64,000 nt of DNA. Source: an uncultured Bdellovibrio sp. Lineage in GTDB: Bacteria; Bdellovibrionota; Bdellovibrionia; Bdellovibrionales; Bdellovibrionaceae. The DNA is taken from assembly GCA_963932905.1 (NCBI GenBank), contig CAWVRN010000005.1, forward strand, positions 64,001 through 128,000, in the 5' to 3' direction. A program made the position numbers. Shown piece by piece: positions 24,001 to 27,000 of this stretch (its first letter is position 1; the number at the start of each line of letters is the position of its first letter).

Positions 24001-27000
24001 ATGAAATTAGGGACATCATTTTGGAGGCGTTGTGACTGTAATTGAAAAACCGGTACGTTATCTGTTGCCTAATTCGATTGCTCAAATAATGGTTCTTGTT
24101 TCGACATTGATTTTGTCCGTGTCCTCCTCCTTTGCGCAGGCACCTAAAGTCGTACCCGGAGAGTACTTAATTAAGTATCGCGTGGACATGGGATCATCCA
24201 ACGTCATTGGGAAAATTCAAAGTAAAGTAAATTTAAAAGCCGCATTCCCTGAAATGAATATGCTGCATTTCTCAGTTAAACCTGGCCAAGAATCTGCCAT
24301 CGATGAAATCAAAAATGACCCTGAAGTTTTATTCGTAGAACCAAATTACATTCTAGAAAAATTAGATGATGGAACTCCGGGACAAGTTGTCGATCGTCTT
24401 TCCATGGACGAAGTTCAAGCGCAGTCTTCGTTGTCCTATTCACAAAACTACGCAGCGGTGCGAGTAGAGCAAGCCTGGTCTTTGTCGTCGGCTTATTCTG
24501 CTGGTAACCGTCCCATAGTTGCGATTGTCGACACGGGGTTGGATGGCACACATAACCTATTCAAGAACACGAATGCGCTGTGGATAAATCCTAAAGAAAT
24601 ACCAGGGAATGGTATCGATGATGACCAAAACGGATATATCGATGATATTAATGGATGGAATTTTATCACGAATTCGGCGTCCTATGCAGACGACGAAGGT
24701 CACGGTACACATGTAGCTGGTATTGTTGTCGGTGCTGGTTTAGATATTTTCTCGCCGAATTTAGATCAATCCAAAATCCGCATTATGCCACTTAAATTCT
24801 TGGATAAAACCGGTGCGGGCTCAACGTCAAATGCAGTTAAAGCTATCTACTACGCCGTAAATAACGGCGCAAAGATTATCAATAACTCATGGGGTGGCCC
24901 TGGTTATTCAAGTGCTCTTCTTGAAGCGCTGTCGTATGCATACGGTCAACGTGTTTTGATTGTATCTGCAGCGGGTAACAGTAGCAAAAACAATGATTCA
25001 ACCGAAATGTATCCGGCGAACTATGTAGTGCCTAGTAACATTAGTATCGCAGCGTCTAGTGACACGGATAAATTAGCGTCGTTTTCTAACTATGGCGTTG
25101 GCAACGTACATGTCGCTAGCCCAGGTGTTTACATTTATTCATCTTTGCCTGGAAATATGTTTGGGTCGATGTCAGGCACATCAATGGCTGCCCCATTCGT
25201 TTCTGGGATCGCGGCGCTCGCGTTACGAGAAGCGCCATCGTTGACAGGCTATCAATTAAAAAGTTTGATTCTGTCGACGGCCGTACAAGTTGGTCCGTTA
25301 GCAGGCAAAGTCCAAACGGGTGCTCGAGTCGACGCTTATTCGCTGGTTTCACAAGCGAAATCAAATGTGGCCACGGCTGCTTCGCAGCCAGATTATAAGC
25401 CTGCTTACTCTGAGTCTCGTGAGCCCGCATCTGAAACGCAGTCGTCTCCGAAATCTAGCGGTGGTTGTGGATTGGTGAGCTCAGCAATAATGAATCAACT
25501 AGGCGGCGGCGGTGGTGGAGGTATGACTCCAGCCAACGCTATATCATTGATCTTAGTGTTGTCGATGCCATTGGCTTACTTCTTCTATCTACGAACTCGC
25601 AAACCGGCGTCACGTCGTAAATACGATCGCTTCGTTATGAAATCTGATATTAAAGTTAATATCGGCGGACGTGAACTTGTCGCTCAAATGAACACAATTT
25701 CGATGGGCGGTTTAAGTTTCAACGTGGATGAAATGCTTGAAAAAGGTGGATCATTGACAATGAGAATCAAAGGACCGGATGGTGCCGAGCTAGAGGTCGA
25801 AGGCAAAGTAGTTTGGTCAGAAGCGAACCAATCGTATGGGGTTCAGTTCTCTGAGGCCAAGCAAGGATTGGCGCAAACTATTCAAGGCTGGACATCTCAG
25901 CTTGTGAAAACAGATCGCTAGTCGTTAGGTAAATTATTGTAATCACCAAGCCCAAAGGTTTCGACCTTTGGGCTTTTTATTTTTCTAACCACGTATTAGG
26001 GAAGTCAAACGCTTGATTTTGAAAATAGATGCGTTCATAGAACATCATATTTCTAAGTATCAATTTGATATAGGTACGTGTTTCTTCGTATGGAATCTCT
26101 TCAATAAATTCGATCACATTGTCACGATTGCGAACCTGCAACCAACCCTTATAAGCGGCTGAAGAGGCGTTGTAGCCGGCGATAGAAGGTATGAAACGCC
26201 CTTGGTTTGCAGTAAGTAAGTTTTTAAGTTCTTTTGTGCCCAGAGCAATATTTACCCTAGGATCGAATAGATCAAATTCGTTTCGATAGCTGATTCCTTG
26301 TTCCCCGGCACTCAGTTTCTTTGCCAAATTTGGCATCAGTTGTAACAACCCCAAGGCATCGACCGAACTGCGAGCATAGGGATTAAACGCAGATTCCTGT
26401 CGCATAATTGAATAGACAAAACTCATAGGAACATTTCTAAGCTGACTGTTTTTCTGAACGTCATCAAAAAATGGTTTTGGAAAAAGCAGCTCGGGGAAAG
26501 AATACGTGATTGTATTTTTTTGCTCGCTTGTTAGCGCTTGAATCGAATTTAACAAATTTTGATATTGCCCAGATTGTGAGTACAGTAGCAAGATTGGCAA
26601 GTAGTTAGTTAAAACCTCTCTTTCAAGAACCTTAGACCAGCTTTGCAGGACATCGTTTTGTTCAAGACTAATCAGCCAAAGGACTTCGGAAATTTCACTT
26701 TCGGATAAATTGTTTTTTAAATTCTCTACTAAAAATTCGCGTTTATTACTTAACGATGATTTTTTTAATAATGGAATAGGTTCTTTTAGATCACGATAGG
26801 AAAGTAGAGTGTAGAACGACAATGGTTCTTTTTTTCTTAAGTTTAGCAGAACCTCTTTATAAACATCTTCTTTGCCAAGCTTTAAGTTTGCATGAGCTAA
26901 CCAATATAGATATTTTGAATCCGATTCACCGCCCAACTTGTCGGTAATTTCCTGAAGTGAATTTTTGGCGGCTTCATATTTCCTATTTTTGTATTCTAAC

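Follow-up and report, generated by a model that had tools for sequence, protein, structure and literature searches.

How could a second messenger in the cytoplasm govern proteolysis on the far side of the inner membrane? The question is raised by a gene in the stretch of DNA analysed here (the window: 64,000 nucleotides from an uncultured Bdellovibrio sp.), which encodes in a single protein a signal peptide, a propeptide-like unit, a subtilase catalytic domain of the S8 family, a tether, one transmembrane helix and a C-terminal PilZ domain (Table 1). This single-gene architecture had been described in a first-pass annotation and is retained here. That annotation had also proposed that the PilZ tail reads c-di-GMP and, by way of the single helix, turns the protease on or off, and that such a protease would be new; neither proposal is retained. 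The best explanation as a whole is that the gene is the orthologue of Bd2545 of Bdellovibrio bacteriovorus, that its product is a type-I inner-membrane protease, and that ligand binding by the PilZ domain would act on the clustering or docking of that protein. With the mechanism included, this reading is given a probability of about 0.45; the identity and the architecture, taken alone, are close to certain.

Table 1. Features of the S8-PilZ gene and its product (positions in the window; residues numbered in the protein).
Feature	Position	Strand	Basis and details
FliA (sigma-28)-like promoter	23977..24004	+	Sequence pattern TAAAG-N16-(T)CCGATGA; ends 27 nt 5' of start codon
Shine-Dalgarno sequence GGAGG	24023..24027	+	Sequence reading; 4 nt 5' of GTG
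S8-PilZ coding sequence	24032..25921	+	629 aa + stop; GTG start; one gene
Predicted signal peptide, residues 1-37	24032..24142	+	K6, R9, hydrophobic core, end at SFAQA before P; hydropathy
Propeptide-like domain, residues 38-106	24143..24349	+	Weak Pfam match, AF2 pattern
S8 subtilase catalytic domain, residues 158-419	24503..25288	+	Pfam PF00082
Catalytic D167	24530-24532	+	S8 domain
Catalytic H224	24701-24703	+	S8 domain
Oxyanion N316	24977-24979	+	S8 domain
Catalytic S384	25181-25183	+	S8 domain
Tether, residues 446-499, low-complexity, Ser/Gly/Pro-rich	25367..25528	+	Sequence, AF2 low confidence
Tether motif G478-C479-G480-L-V	25463-25477	+	Homologue alignment
Transmembrane helix, residues 500-522, invariant P513	25529..25597	+	Hydropathy, AF2
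PilZ domain, residues 528-620	25613..25891	+	Pfam PF07238; C-terminal helix 611-622
RRxxxR (R528-R529-K-Y-D-R533)	25613-25630	+	Sequence
T-I-S-M-G-G, residues 555-560	25694-25711	+	Sequence
Intrinsic-terminator-like hairpin	25948..25985	+	12-bp stem, 6 GC pairs, 4-nt loop, then T-run; 27 nt past stop

As a sequence observation, the joining of S8 and PilZ domains is not new. The architecture was listed in 2008 as a table entry, "Subt-PilZ" (Tripathi and Sowdhamini, PMC2605481), a review refers to it (PMC7288161), and almost all sampled genomes of the order have it; the claim of novelty is therefore lost, and the caveat that had accompanied it (a table entry in print, an architecture probably widespread) proves to be correct. 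The window protein resembles the members of this family over their full length and has the same order of signal peptide, S8 domain, Cys-Gly tether, transmembrane helix and PilZ domain. Within the same family, every sampled genome (53 of 53) has the fusion, as do 40 of 48 from elsewhere in the order; it is absent among the matches listed from the rest of the phylum. The best 120 homologues, which were aligned with MAFFT, are 49-100% identical to it over nearly the full length; both PF00082 and PF07238 are found on 119 of them, the remaining one being a partial record, and 25 of 28 compared loci reach the end of the PilZ domain.

Because the homologue in B. bacteriovorus is 52% identical to the window protein across 97% of the query and has the same upstream gene order, the window gene is taken as the orthologue of Bd2545 (NP_969350.1) of strain HD100. 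The two have the same domain order, almost the same length (628 vs 629 amino acids), the same upstream neighbours and a promoter of the FliA type, and both are monocistronic; they differ in that the window gene belongs to another genus of the same family and has different downstream neighbours. No functional study of Bd2545 was found in the literature searched, what is in print being table entries and transcript levels.

The protein has exactly two hydrophobic segments (Kyte-Doolittle value above 1.4), at residues 10-38 and 497-522. The first of these corresponds to an N-terminal hydrophobic window present in 107 of 119 homologues, and cleavage after SFAQA is predicted from a motif of the AxA type. 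The next region, residues 38-105, matches Fervidolysin_NPro-like at a score under the cut-off (E 0.011, 16.5 bits vs 21); PF22148 is precomputed on many homologues, and the AF2 model at residues 40-106 has a beta-alpha-beta-beta-alpha-beta pattern with block pLDDT values of 67-80. The catalytic domain is recognised far over its cut-off (PF00082, 176.8 vs 21.8 bits, E 7.7e-52), and this match and that of the PilZ domain (E 1.8e-15) reproduce the earlier Pfam assignments with slightly different E-values of the same meaning. The closest solved sequence to the S8 domain is deseasin MCP-01 (3vv3_A, E 1.3e-59), one of 161 solved S8 sequences that match at E<=1e-5. D167, H224, S384 and N316 are all kept in 120 of 120 homologues, so proteolysis itself is likely to be under selection. 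As judged from sequence, models and comparison, the signal peptide, of the Sec type, is predicted to export a propeptide and a catalytically intact subtilase to the periplasm of the predator. In this half, the protein is similar to the mycosins (MycP, the subtilases of type VII secretion), which also have a signal peptide, an S8 domain and a C-terminal transmembrane anchor, and the mycosin model TIGR03921 was the best of the NCBIfam models in a scan of the whole protein at E<=0.1 (E 6.8e-35). The score of 120.8 bits lies well under the cut-off of 278.75, however, and mycosins are without PilZ.

The second hydrophobic segment is the membrane anchor. A hydrophobic stretch had been annotated at residues 504-520: the helix is indeed there, but its limits are 500-522 in the AF2 model and 497-522 by hydropathy. 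It is followed by the basic stretch that had been reported (R521, R523, K524, R528, R529, K530 and R533). The two flanks of the helix differ in charge: over 119 homologues, the median net charge is +5 (range +3 to +7) on the cytoplasmic side and 0 on the periplasmic side. The charges of the flanks, together with the presence of two hydrophobic segments, support the predicted N-out/C-in topology, in agreement with the original placing of the protease outside and the PilZ domain inside.

Between enzyme and helix lies the tether, with the motif Q452-P453-x-Y-x-P, the motif around C479 and a run of seven glycines at residues 491-497, which accounts for the Gly-rich linker noted earlier. C479 and G480 are kept in 119 of 120 homologues, and in 55 of the 120 the equivalent of C479 is the sole cysteine of the protein. 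The length of the tether is conserved as well, the distance from R432 to P513 having a median of 78 residues (IQR 76-82, 120 sequences). These invariant motifs and the tightly kept length argue against a passive leash, as they appear to be more than one would need. Immediately outside the helix is a hinge rich in glycine (median Gly fraction 0.42; fraction of G, S, P, N and T 0.69; 119 sequences). In the full-length AF2 model, residues 461-500 have pLDDT values under 50; as this model, made from 18 sequences, is a weak one (mean pLDDT 61.7), the description of the tether as disordered rests partly on low confidence.

On the cytoplasmic side, the PilZ domain is likewise recognised far over its cut-off (PF07238, 57.6 vs 22.5 bits) and scores best of all PilZ matches in the genome. 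These number 19 at E<=1e-3 (18 over the cut-off), rather than the 16 previously counted; the FeeM + PilZ fusion that had been mentioned with them exists (G000:C7:84499-85752). The model of the tail (pLDDT 83.7) has the canonical fold of a six-stranded beta-barrel with a C-terminal helix. Its best match by Foldseek is the PilZ domain of Alg44 with c-di-GMP (4rt0, E 7.5e-6). By VIA, it matches Alg44 (4rt1_B) with Z 14.1 and an rmsd of 2.2 Å over 100 residues, and MotI with Z 13.7; the c-di-GMP-bound domains of Alg44, MotI, YcgR, MapZ and BcsA are all matched, ligand-bound domains reaching Z 12-14 and xPilZ about 6. A single-sequence search of the PDB with the tail returned only spurious matches to repeat proteins and was superseded by the profile and fold searches. 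In the profile search against solved structures, the best match is the flagellar brake MotI/YpfA (E 6.7e-4), and PilZ proteins of the Xanthomonas type IV pilus (4f48, 3dsg, 3cnr) match at E 0.003-0.02.

The likeness to Alg44, the alginate co-polymerase of Pseudomonas aeruginosa, extends to the presence of a canonical cytoplasmic PilZ domain on a membrane-spanning protein with a periplasmic domain. The sequence identity in this best structural match is 18-20%, and the PilZ domain of Alg44 is N-terminal and its periplasmic domain, of the HlyD type, is part of a polysaccharide machine and has no active site of its own. As the S8-PilZ protein has a C-terminal PilZ domain and no HlyD-type domain, only the PilZ fold is common to the two.

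The residues expected to bind c-di-GMP, which had previously been left unchecked, give a divided answer. The RxxxR motif is present within R528-R529...R533 and aligns with RRQYVR of MotI; of 120 homologues, 118 keep R529 and 119 keep R533, and both residues are kept in all of 26 tails down to 24% identity, among which G559 and G560 are also invariant and S557 is kept in at least 90%. In the second motif, [D/N]hSxxG, the part hSxxG is retained (I556-S557-M-G-G560), but T555 takes the place of D or N; the MotI residue at this point of the alignment is the N of NISAGG. This position is T in 111 and S in 8 of the 120 homologues, and T is found there in only 2 of the 19 PilZ matches of the genome. 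PilZ-fold adaptors which do not bind c-di-GMP exist, and the replacement of D or N throughout the family, as well as the profile matches to the Xanthomonas pilus proteins, would suit a tail of this kind, serving as a cytoplasmic anchor or partner module for a constitutively active tethered protease. We regard this as quite unlikely: the (near-)invariance of both arginines of RxxxR, the serine and both glycines is hard to explain without a ligand, and the fold, with its long C-terminal helix, is closer to ligand-bound domains than to xPilZ. A preprint by Galperin and Chou (bioRxiv 10.1101/814665) further states that fused PilZ domains invariably keep binding. From the motifs and the modelled fold, the tail probably binds c-di-GMP.

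If it does so, by what means could the enzyme respond? One answer is the mechanism first proposed, in which binding is transmitted mechanically, by a piston, tilt or rotation of the helix, and toggles the periplasmic protease. A structural precedent is cellulose synthase, BcsA, in which the last transmembrane helix is likewise followed directly by an RxxxR linker and the PilZ barrel; by VIA, helix and barrel together match BcsA with Z 12.6 over model residues 1-134 (9fnn_A) and Z 10.5 over 1-128 (4p00_A). The RRxxxR loop lies six to eleven residues past the helix, and the spacing from P513 to R529 is conserved (median 18, IQR 17-22). In addition, because the motifs of the tether are invariant and its length is conserved, a part of it could be a regulatory element that docks to the enzyme. 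The PilZ domain of BcsA, however, directly contacts and so controls a catalytic domain that belongs to the same protein and is itself cytoplasmic, whereas the S8 enzyme lies across the membrane and behind a flexible tether. The precedent in concept is LapD-LapG of Pseudomonas fluorescens, where cytoplasmic c-di-GMP also decides the action of a periplasmic protease, and of which this mechanism would be a one-polypeptide version. LapD-LapG consists of two proteins, a degenerate GGDEF-EAL receptor with HAMP and a sequestered, untethered Cys protease. There is no homology between the systems, the S8-PilZ protein having only S8 and PilZ domains, and neither a LapG-type Cys protease nor a LapD-type HAMP-GGDEF-EAL receptor is found in the protein or in the neighbouring genes. 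LapD requires its dimeric HAMP and periplasmic domain to transmit the signal, and Pfam reveals no rigid transmitter in the S8-PilZ protein, be it a coiled coil, a HAMP domain or another. The Gly hinge and the approximately 40 residues of low pLDDT would be expected to decouple movements of the helix from the enzyme. On/off switching through the single helix is thus not borne out and is considered very unlikely; clustering, docking or processing of the tether is more likely.

Processing of the tether brings in the evolutionary history of the anchor. The subfamily of PilZ domains to which the tail belongs occurs only on S8 proteins (56 of 56 matches). Stand-alone TM-PilZ ancestors were considered, with 30 of 150 listed short representatives of the tail being scanned, but these appear to be N-terminally cut fragments of S8-PilZ proteins, and 12 of 24 scanned start inside the S8 profile. 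Of the relatives without PilZ, found in other Bdellovibrionota as well as within the order, 11 of 11 end in a segment composed of Cys-Gly, a transmembrane helix with proline and a basic cluster, and stop 5-20 residues past that cluster. An older membrane-anchored subtilase (S8, Cys-Gly, helix with proline, basic end) may have gained a cytoplasmic PilZ domain in the ancestor of the order, and the tail, once gained, would have been retained almost everywhere in the order. Five genomes of the order in which the S8 protein lacks the tail still have 2-3 GGDEF and 4-5 PilZ genes; the tail is therefore not strictly required wherever c-di-GMP signalling exists, and joint loss of the tail with c-di-GMP genes does not discriminate between readings.

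A tripartite ending of this kind, with a small-residue/Cys motif, a helix and a basic cluster, is reminiscent of the C-terminal sorting domains MYXO-CTERM and GlyGly-CTERM, and in the relatives without PilZ it is terminal. It invites the suggestion that the segment is a signal for processing or sorting, and that PilZ occupancy at the juxtamembrane loop governs cleavage of the tether by an intramembrane or juxtamembrane protease; cleavage, for instance when prey is entered, would release the subtilase and leave a TM-PilZ stub. Helix-breaking Pro or Gly residues in a transmembrane segment are typical determinants of intramembrane proteolysis, and 119 of 120 homologues keep P513, the same count as for C479-G480; P513 is also present in 26 of 26 tails. 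Four rhomboid-like frames are present in the genome. When the C-termini of the 11 relatives were scanned against NCBIfam at E<=10, all matches were sub-threshold and included GlyGly-CTERM (13.1 vs 15.5 bits) and IPTL-CTERM (11.8 vs 20.5 bits), each in 1 of 11; MYXO-CTERM was not among them. The tests at the level of the genome point the other way. Across the genome, neither MYXO-CTERM (TIGR03901) nor GlyGly-CTERM (TIGR03501) has any match at E<=1, the S8-PilZ gene included for the former; no rhombosortase (TIGR03902) is over the cut-off, the best score being 49 vs 84 bits, a level at which all 14 control genomes match. An HMM built from the segment between the cysteine and the basic cluster (130 sequences) found the S8-PilZ gene (E 1.1e-17) and no second carrier among 15860 six-frame ORFs (next E 0.28), whereas sorting signals normally mark many substrates. 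The S8-PilZ protein also differs from proteins with these domains in that its cysteine lies about 20-25 residues before the helix, no model scores over its cut-off, and the segment is internal, being followed by PilZ. Release gated by c-di-GMP is accordingly judged unlikely.

Besides the region upstream of the window gene, 5 of 27 upstream regions of orthologues carry the strict FliA pattern, with 0.012 expected per 300 nt, and a relaxed score of at least 10/12 is reached by 13 of 28 upstream regions vs 123 of 2000 random segments. The published consensus of attack-phase promoters in B. bacteriovorus is TTAAG-N16-CCGATA. Bd2545 is reported to have an RPKM of 11906 in the attack phase vs 4.29 in the growth phase, a transcription start site 19 nt upstream, an operon of one gene and a FliA site marked "yes"; it is termed a pilZ gene in print, with reported down-regulation at bdelloplast entry (0.62/0.58-fold) and in HI growth (0.13/0.10-fold). 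For the window gene, four RNA runs of one metatranscriptome study gave short contigs confined to 24400-25951 with bare flanks, although the cover is thin and DNA carry-over is possible. A scan with Rfam of positions 21000-29000 found no family and no riboswitch. A link of the gene to the life cycle of the predator, as had been suggested, is thus supported by its FliA-like promoter and by an orthologue that is attack-phase-specific and FliA-driven.

As in Bd2545, this promoter is accompanied upstream by a gene for a conserved 483-residue protein (unk483) and a DUF502 gene; the two are found upstream and divergent in 10 of 28 loci, B. bacteriovorus included, and the 483-residue protein belongs to no family in the protein atlas. 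Downstream, only a single locus, 93% identical, shares the GGDEF gene (at 6 kb) and the SLT, M48 and ClpAS genes, so no partner can be deduced from the neighbourhood; in B. bacteriovorus, the downstream genes encode a response regulator, MgtE and ABC transporters. The Tn-seq fitness of EP01_RS08730, the probable orthologue in strain 109J, is 0.96-1.46 (neutral being about 1), and both genes of that strain annotated "subtilisin-like serine protease" are near neutral. Membership of the FliA regulon, the near-neutral fitness, which would fit a modulatory role, and MotI as the best sequence match could be read in another direction, in which the tail acts on the flagellar motor or the type IV pilus ATPase and the subtilase mainly localises it or has an unrelated housekeeping role. 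YcgR, MotI and xPilZ do act on cytoplasmic targets such as these. We consider this highly improbable: FliA in B. bacteriovorus drives most attack-phase genes, beyond the flagellar ones, the S8-PilZ gene has no conserved neighbour of the motor or pilus kind in 28 loci, and the catalytic residues are maintained without exception.

In the preferred reading, a flexible tether of about 55 residues would hold the S8 enzyme in the periplasm, and one helix would lead to the PilZ barrel in the cytoplasm. With a Gly-rich hinge separating the movements of helix and enzyme, c-di-GMP would most likely act on the whole tethered molecule and not on the active site. Ligand-dependent pairing or clustering of the tails would then set the location and concentration of the protease. 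Since subtilases mature by removal of an inhibitory propeptide, and neighbouring molecules can do this in trans, clustering could also be the step of activation. Alternatively, location and concentration may be set by docking of the C-terminal helix of the PilZ domain on a cytoplasmic or inner-membrane partner. The preprint cited above describes dimerisation of the Alg44 PilZ domain via its C-terminal helices and a role of this helix in contacts with partners (bioRxiv 10.1101/814665). A bolder version, rather unlikely in our estimate, is that c-di-GMP, through a PilZ domain placed directly at the inner end of a sorting-signal-like anchor, decides the fate of the anchor: the abundant attack-phase subtilase would either remain tethered and inactive on the inner membrane or, when the predator contacts prey, undergo clustering, maturation in trans and/or release. 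If true, this would be an irreversible inside-out protease switch in a single polypeptide, acting by proximity or processing rather than by allostery.

What the present analysis adds to the tabulated architecture is the link to a FliA promoter, the relatives without PilZ that share the anchor, the BcsA-like geometry from helix to PilZ, the conserved length of the tether, the Gly hinge and the negative tests for sorting signals. In Bdellovibrio, invasion of prey is under the control of c-di-GMP. Should the tail bind this messenger and thereby alter the protease, no simpler link would be known from a second messenger in the cytoplasm to proteolysis beyond the inner membrane, with one polypeptide in place of the LapD-LapG pair. 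Since the S8-PilZ protein is found in almost all sampled genomes of this predatory order and its transcript is among the strongly attack-phase-specific ones in B. bacteriovorus, it offers a ready experimental handle on how c-di-GMP reaches the envelope.

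The S8-PilZ gene was found at the position, and with the two domains, that the first-pass annotation had reported. Pfam places Peptidase_S8 at residues 158–419 (E 7.7e-52) and PilZ at residues 528–620 (E 1.8e-15), with a Fervidolysin_NPro-like match at residues 38–105 that is sub-threshold; a Shine–Dalgarno sequence, GGAGG, lies 4 nt 5′ of the start codon, and a 12-bp hairpin followed by a T-run lies 3′ of the stop codon. No NCBIfam model scored over its cut-off for the protein, the best being T7SS mycosin (120.8 bits against a cut-off of 278.75), and the closest solved sequence to the S8 part is that of deseasin MCP-01, a collagenolytic subtilase (E 1.3e-59). 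The catalytic residues D167, H224 and S384, together with the oxyanion residue N316, are kept in 120/120 homologues. Only two segments of the protein have membrane-grade hydrophobicity, i.e., residues 10–38 (ending SFAQA|P) and residues 497–522. As the inner flank of the second segment is basic (median net charge +5, range +3 to +7) and its outer flank neutral (0) across 119 homologues, the predicted topology is N-out/C-in, which puts the protease in the periplasm and the PilZ domain in the cytoplasm. Composition and models bear out the topology of the earlier reading.

Features of the window around the S8-PilZ gene
Feature	Position	Strand	Remarks
483-aa protein, no Pfam or NCBIfam family	21627-23078	-	divergent from S8-PilZ gene
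DUF502 membrane protein	23053-23673	-	26-bp overlap with gene of 483-aa protein
FliA-like promoter, TAAAG-N16-(T)CCGATGA	23977-24004	+	read from sequence; ends 27 nt before start codon
S8-PilZ coding sequence	24032-25921	+	single ORF, 629 aa, GTG start
TPR + SLT lytic transglycosylase, 725 aa	25977-28154	-	convergent with S8-PilZ gene
GGDEF diguanylate cyclase, 446 aa	32205-33545	+	Pfam E 2e-36; sub-threshold N-terminal PAS; about 6 kb downstream of protease
Type IV pilin-like gene, N_methyl + ComP_DUS domains	33755-34345	+	next after GGDEF gene

At E ≤ 1e-3 the genome yields 19 PilZ matches (18 over the cut-off), approximately the 16 counted earlier, and the best-scoring of them is the S8-PilZ gene. 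The fusion of FeeM with PilZ noted in the same genome is real (G000:C7:84499-85752; FeeM 55–211, E 4.2e-25; PilZ 314–404, E 2e-9). A further match, at G000:C38:3411-3719, has two in-frame TAG codons within a 244-aa frame, which may reflect a broken gene or misassembly.

The window gene belongs to a catalogued, uncharacterised family, and the observation itself is confirmed, its interpretation only in part. As the annotation had said, the architecture is already in print as a table entry: ‘Subt-PilZ NP_969350.1’ of B. bacteriovorus, a single-member architecture in the tabulation of Tripathi & Sowdhamini (2008; PMC2605481). Peptidase_S8 is also named among PilZ partners in a passage of a 2020 review (PMC7288161); the PilZ survey of Galperin & Chou makes no mention of Bdellovibrio, protease or peptidase. 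The best 120 matches in a collection of 5.8 billion proteins are 49–100% identical over nearly full length, and 119 of them have both Pfam domains, the one exception being a partial record; named members come from Bdellovibrio, Bdellovibrionaceae or Pseudobdellovibrionaceae. When the tail alone (residues 495–629, the membrane helix and PilZ end) was the query, 56 proteins were returned, every one with S8 and PilZ. When a profile of 26 tails was run against 1.84 billion representatives, 56 proteins were found at E ≤ 1e-30, about 600–680 aa long or shorter pieces. Stand-alone tails were rejected as an explanation of the short pieces, since the 24 scanned start inside the S8 profile (12) or in the linker (12), and are therefore cut genes. 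Among the 30 of 150 listed matches that were domain-scanned, the next relatives of the tail after the S8 family are proteins of repeated PilZ domains that end in TonB_C. Four of these (P0216, P0221, P0230 and P0234; 720–1064 aa) combine two or three PilZ domains with TonB_C at the C-terminus, one also having an LMW phosphotyrosine phosphatase domain; they are another layout that joins cytoplasmic PilZ to a periplasmic domain.

In one-genome-per-species contigs, the match reaches the PilZ end in 25 of the 28 best loci, all with Bdellovibrio-group titles except for one ‘Proteobacteria bacterium’; in another 52 loci, drawn from many phyla, the match covers the S8 part only. Among 401 sampled genomes of the phylum, with presence scored as a top match that extends across PilZ at least to residue 610, the fusion is present in every one of the 53 other genomes in the window's family, in 38 of the 48 genomes from the order's other families, and in the one sampled genome from another order of the class. 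Two more of those 48 carry it: G116, with a complete tail in a 655-aa frame, and G086, in which it is cut. No fusion was seen among the matches listed from the 298 remaining genomes (best E 1e-25 to 1e-89), which end by residue 537, 999 more matches lying beyond those listed. Five tail-less genomes of the order still have GGDEF and PilZ genes.

The model of the tail (26 sequences, pLDDT 83.7) has a helix at residues 500–522, then a β-barrel, then a C-terminal helix. At E ≤ 1e-3, Foldseek gave 24 matches, all of them PilZ domains, headed by Alg44 with c-di-GMP, and a second structural comparison gave Alg44 (Z 14.1; rmsd 2.2 Å over 100 residues), MotI (Z 13.7) and YcgR (Z 12.7); chains of BcsA align with the helix and barrel together (Z 12.6 and 10.5). 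The ligand loop starts 6–11 residues past the membrane helix. The c-di-GMP residues had been left unchecked: R529 and R533 are present and invariant in 26/26 tails, down to 24% identity, as are G559 and G560, with S557 in at least 90%, but in [D/N]hSxxG the place of D/N is taken by T555. This position, which aligns with the N of MotI, is T in 111 and S in 8 of 120 homologues; among the genome's 19 PilZ matches the residue there is D (7), N (6), E or T (2 each), S or H (1 each). The tail is probably a c-di-GMP binder; that it is instead a non-binding adaptor is unlikely, and a role directed towards the cytoplasm is very improbable.

Between the S8 domain and the helix lies a tether, residues 461–500 of which have pLDDT <50 in a full-length model that is itself weak (mean pLDDT 61.7). 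Despite this low confidence, the tether does not appear free to vary, judging from constraint on its length (R432–P513: median 78 residues, IQR 76–82) and on its motifs (Q-P-x-Y-x-P and an invariant G-C-G-(L/M)-(V/I), the Cys of which is the sole Cys in 55 of 120 proteins). P513, within the helix, is invariant, and a Gly-rich hinge (median Gly fraction 0.42) adjoins the helix on its outer side. The first-pass annotation had proposed that c-di-GMP on PilZ gates the protease through the single helix, in the manner of LapD–LapG. The Gly hinge leaves helix and enzyme uncoupled, so that clustering or docking of tails is likelier than a conformational signal, and such allosteric gating is distinctly unlikely.

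Eleven S8 frames without PilZ (425–538 aa; L081–L091, from G121, G247, G232, G172, G005, G078, G283, G032, G031 and G071) represent other classes of the phylum and a single genus within the order, together with a paralogue carried by a genome belonging to the window's family. All eleven end in Cys-Gly(Ala), a spacer, a Pro-containing transmembrane helix and a basic cluster, and stop about 5–20 residues later. As these relatives end in the same anchor, it would predate the PilZ tail; the genus within the order (represented by G172, G232 and G247) probably lost the tail, since its S8 end, ‘..RRKYKKY..’, resembles a truncated one. Because the anchor resembles a C-terminal sorting domain, it was tested as a sorting signal, but the likeness is formal only: the MYXO-CTERM and GlyGly-CTERM profiles had no match in the whole genome, no rhombosortase scored over cut-off there, the ends of the PilZ-less relatives gave only sub-threshold matches to sorting-domain models, and an HMM of the anchor segment found no carrier besides the S8-PilZ gene among 15860 ORFs of the genome. 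The C-terminal anchor of these Bdellovibrionota subtilases appears to be an undescribed one, outside all curated sorting-domain models tested. Alternatively to clustering, the c-di-GMP signal might be read as changed processing of this anchor; gated release of the subtilase in that way is doubtful.

The B. bacteriovorus orthologue of the window gene, NP_969350.1, is Bd2545, ‘subtilisin like serine protease’. Its RPKM is 11906 in attack phase but 4.29 in growth phase, its transcript starts 19 nt upstream, it is alone in its operon, and it is marked ‘FliA site: yes’ (Karunker et al. 2013, supplement); the attack-phase promoter consensus, TTAAG-N16-CCGATA, occurs in 92/140 promoters (Karunker et al. 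2013). It is one of three pilZ genes lowered on exit from attack phase, with fold changes of 0.62/0.58 at bdelloplast entry and 0.13/0.10 in host-independent growth (Lambert et al. 2010). A literature search found no functional study of Bd2545. The strict FliA-like pattern occurs in 5/27 orthologous upstream regions (0.012 expected per 300 nt), and a relaxed score of at least 10/12 in 13/28, against 123/2000 random segments; the scan of the B. bacteriovorus locus (L002) gave no match, though the published Bd2545 promoter has such a site. Short metatranscriptome contigs from four sludge runs of one study fall within 24400-25951 only, a thin cover that is not proof of transcription.

The pair encoding the 483-aa and DUF502 proteins lies divergently upstream in 10/28 loci, B. 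bacteriovorus among them; the protein-atlas clusters nearest the 483-aa protein have no Pfam family in common. The downstream SLT, M48, ClpA/S and GGDEF genes are common only to the window and the 93%-identical locus (L001) among the 28, and the pairing with GGDEF is retained in L001 only. For the SLT protein, the best NCBIfam models are both sub-cut-off: ‘flagellar assembly lytic transglycosylase’ (112 against 234 bits) and Slt70 (111 against 536). In L002 (strain Bd16), the gene directly 3′ of S8-PilZ (9003-9392, +) encodes a stand-alone response-regulator receiver of 129 aa and is followed by MgtE and two ABC transporter genes.

In Tn-seq of strain 109J (neutral ~1, defect W<0.1, gain W>3), rows labelled ‘subtilisin-like serine protease’ are near neutral: EP01_RS07740 (W 1.30–1.53) and EP01_RS08730 (W 0.96–1.46). 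The latter adjoins magnesium and ABC transporters, as the L002 locus does, and is thus probably the 109J orthologue. These fitness values, like the five tail-less genomes of the order that retain GGDEF and PilZ genes, weigh against the importance of the fusion.

S8-PilZ, a FliA-type gene of the attack phase, encodes a periplasmic subtilase that is catalytically intact, sits on a length-conserved flexible leash and has a canonical PilZ domain. In the preferred reading, clustering or docking of the tails (probability roughly 0.45), c-di-GMP would bind the PilZ tail and be read as altered pairing, clustering or docking, rather than as a conformational signal to the active site. Removal of an inhibitory propeptide in trans is established subtilase biology; clustering could start such removal, and the switch would then be irreversible.
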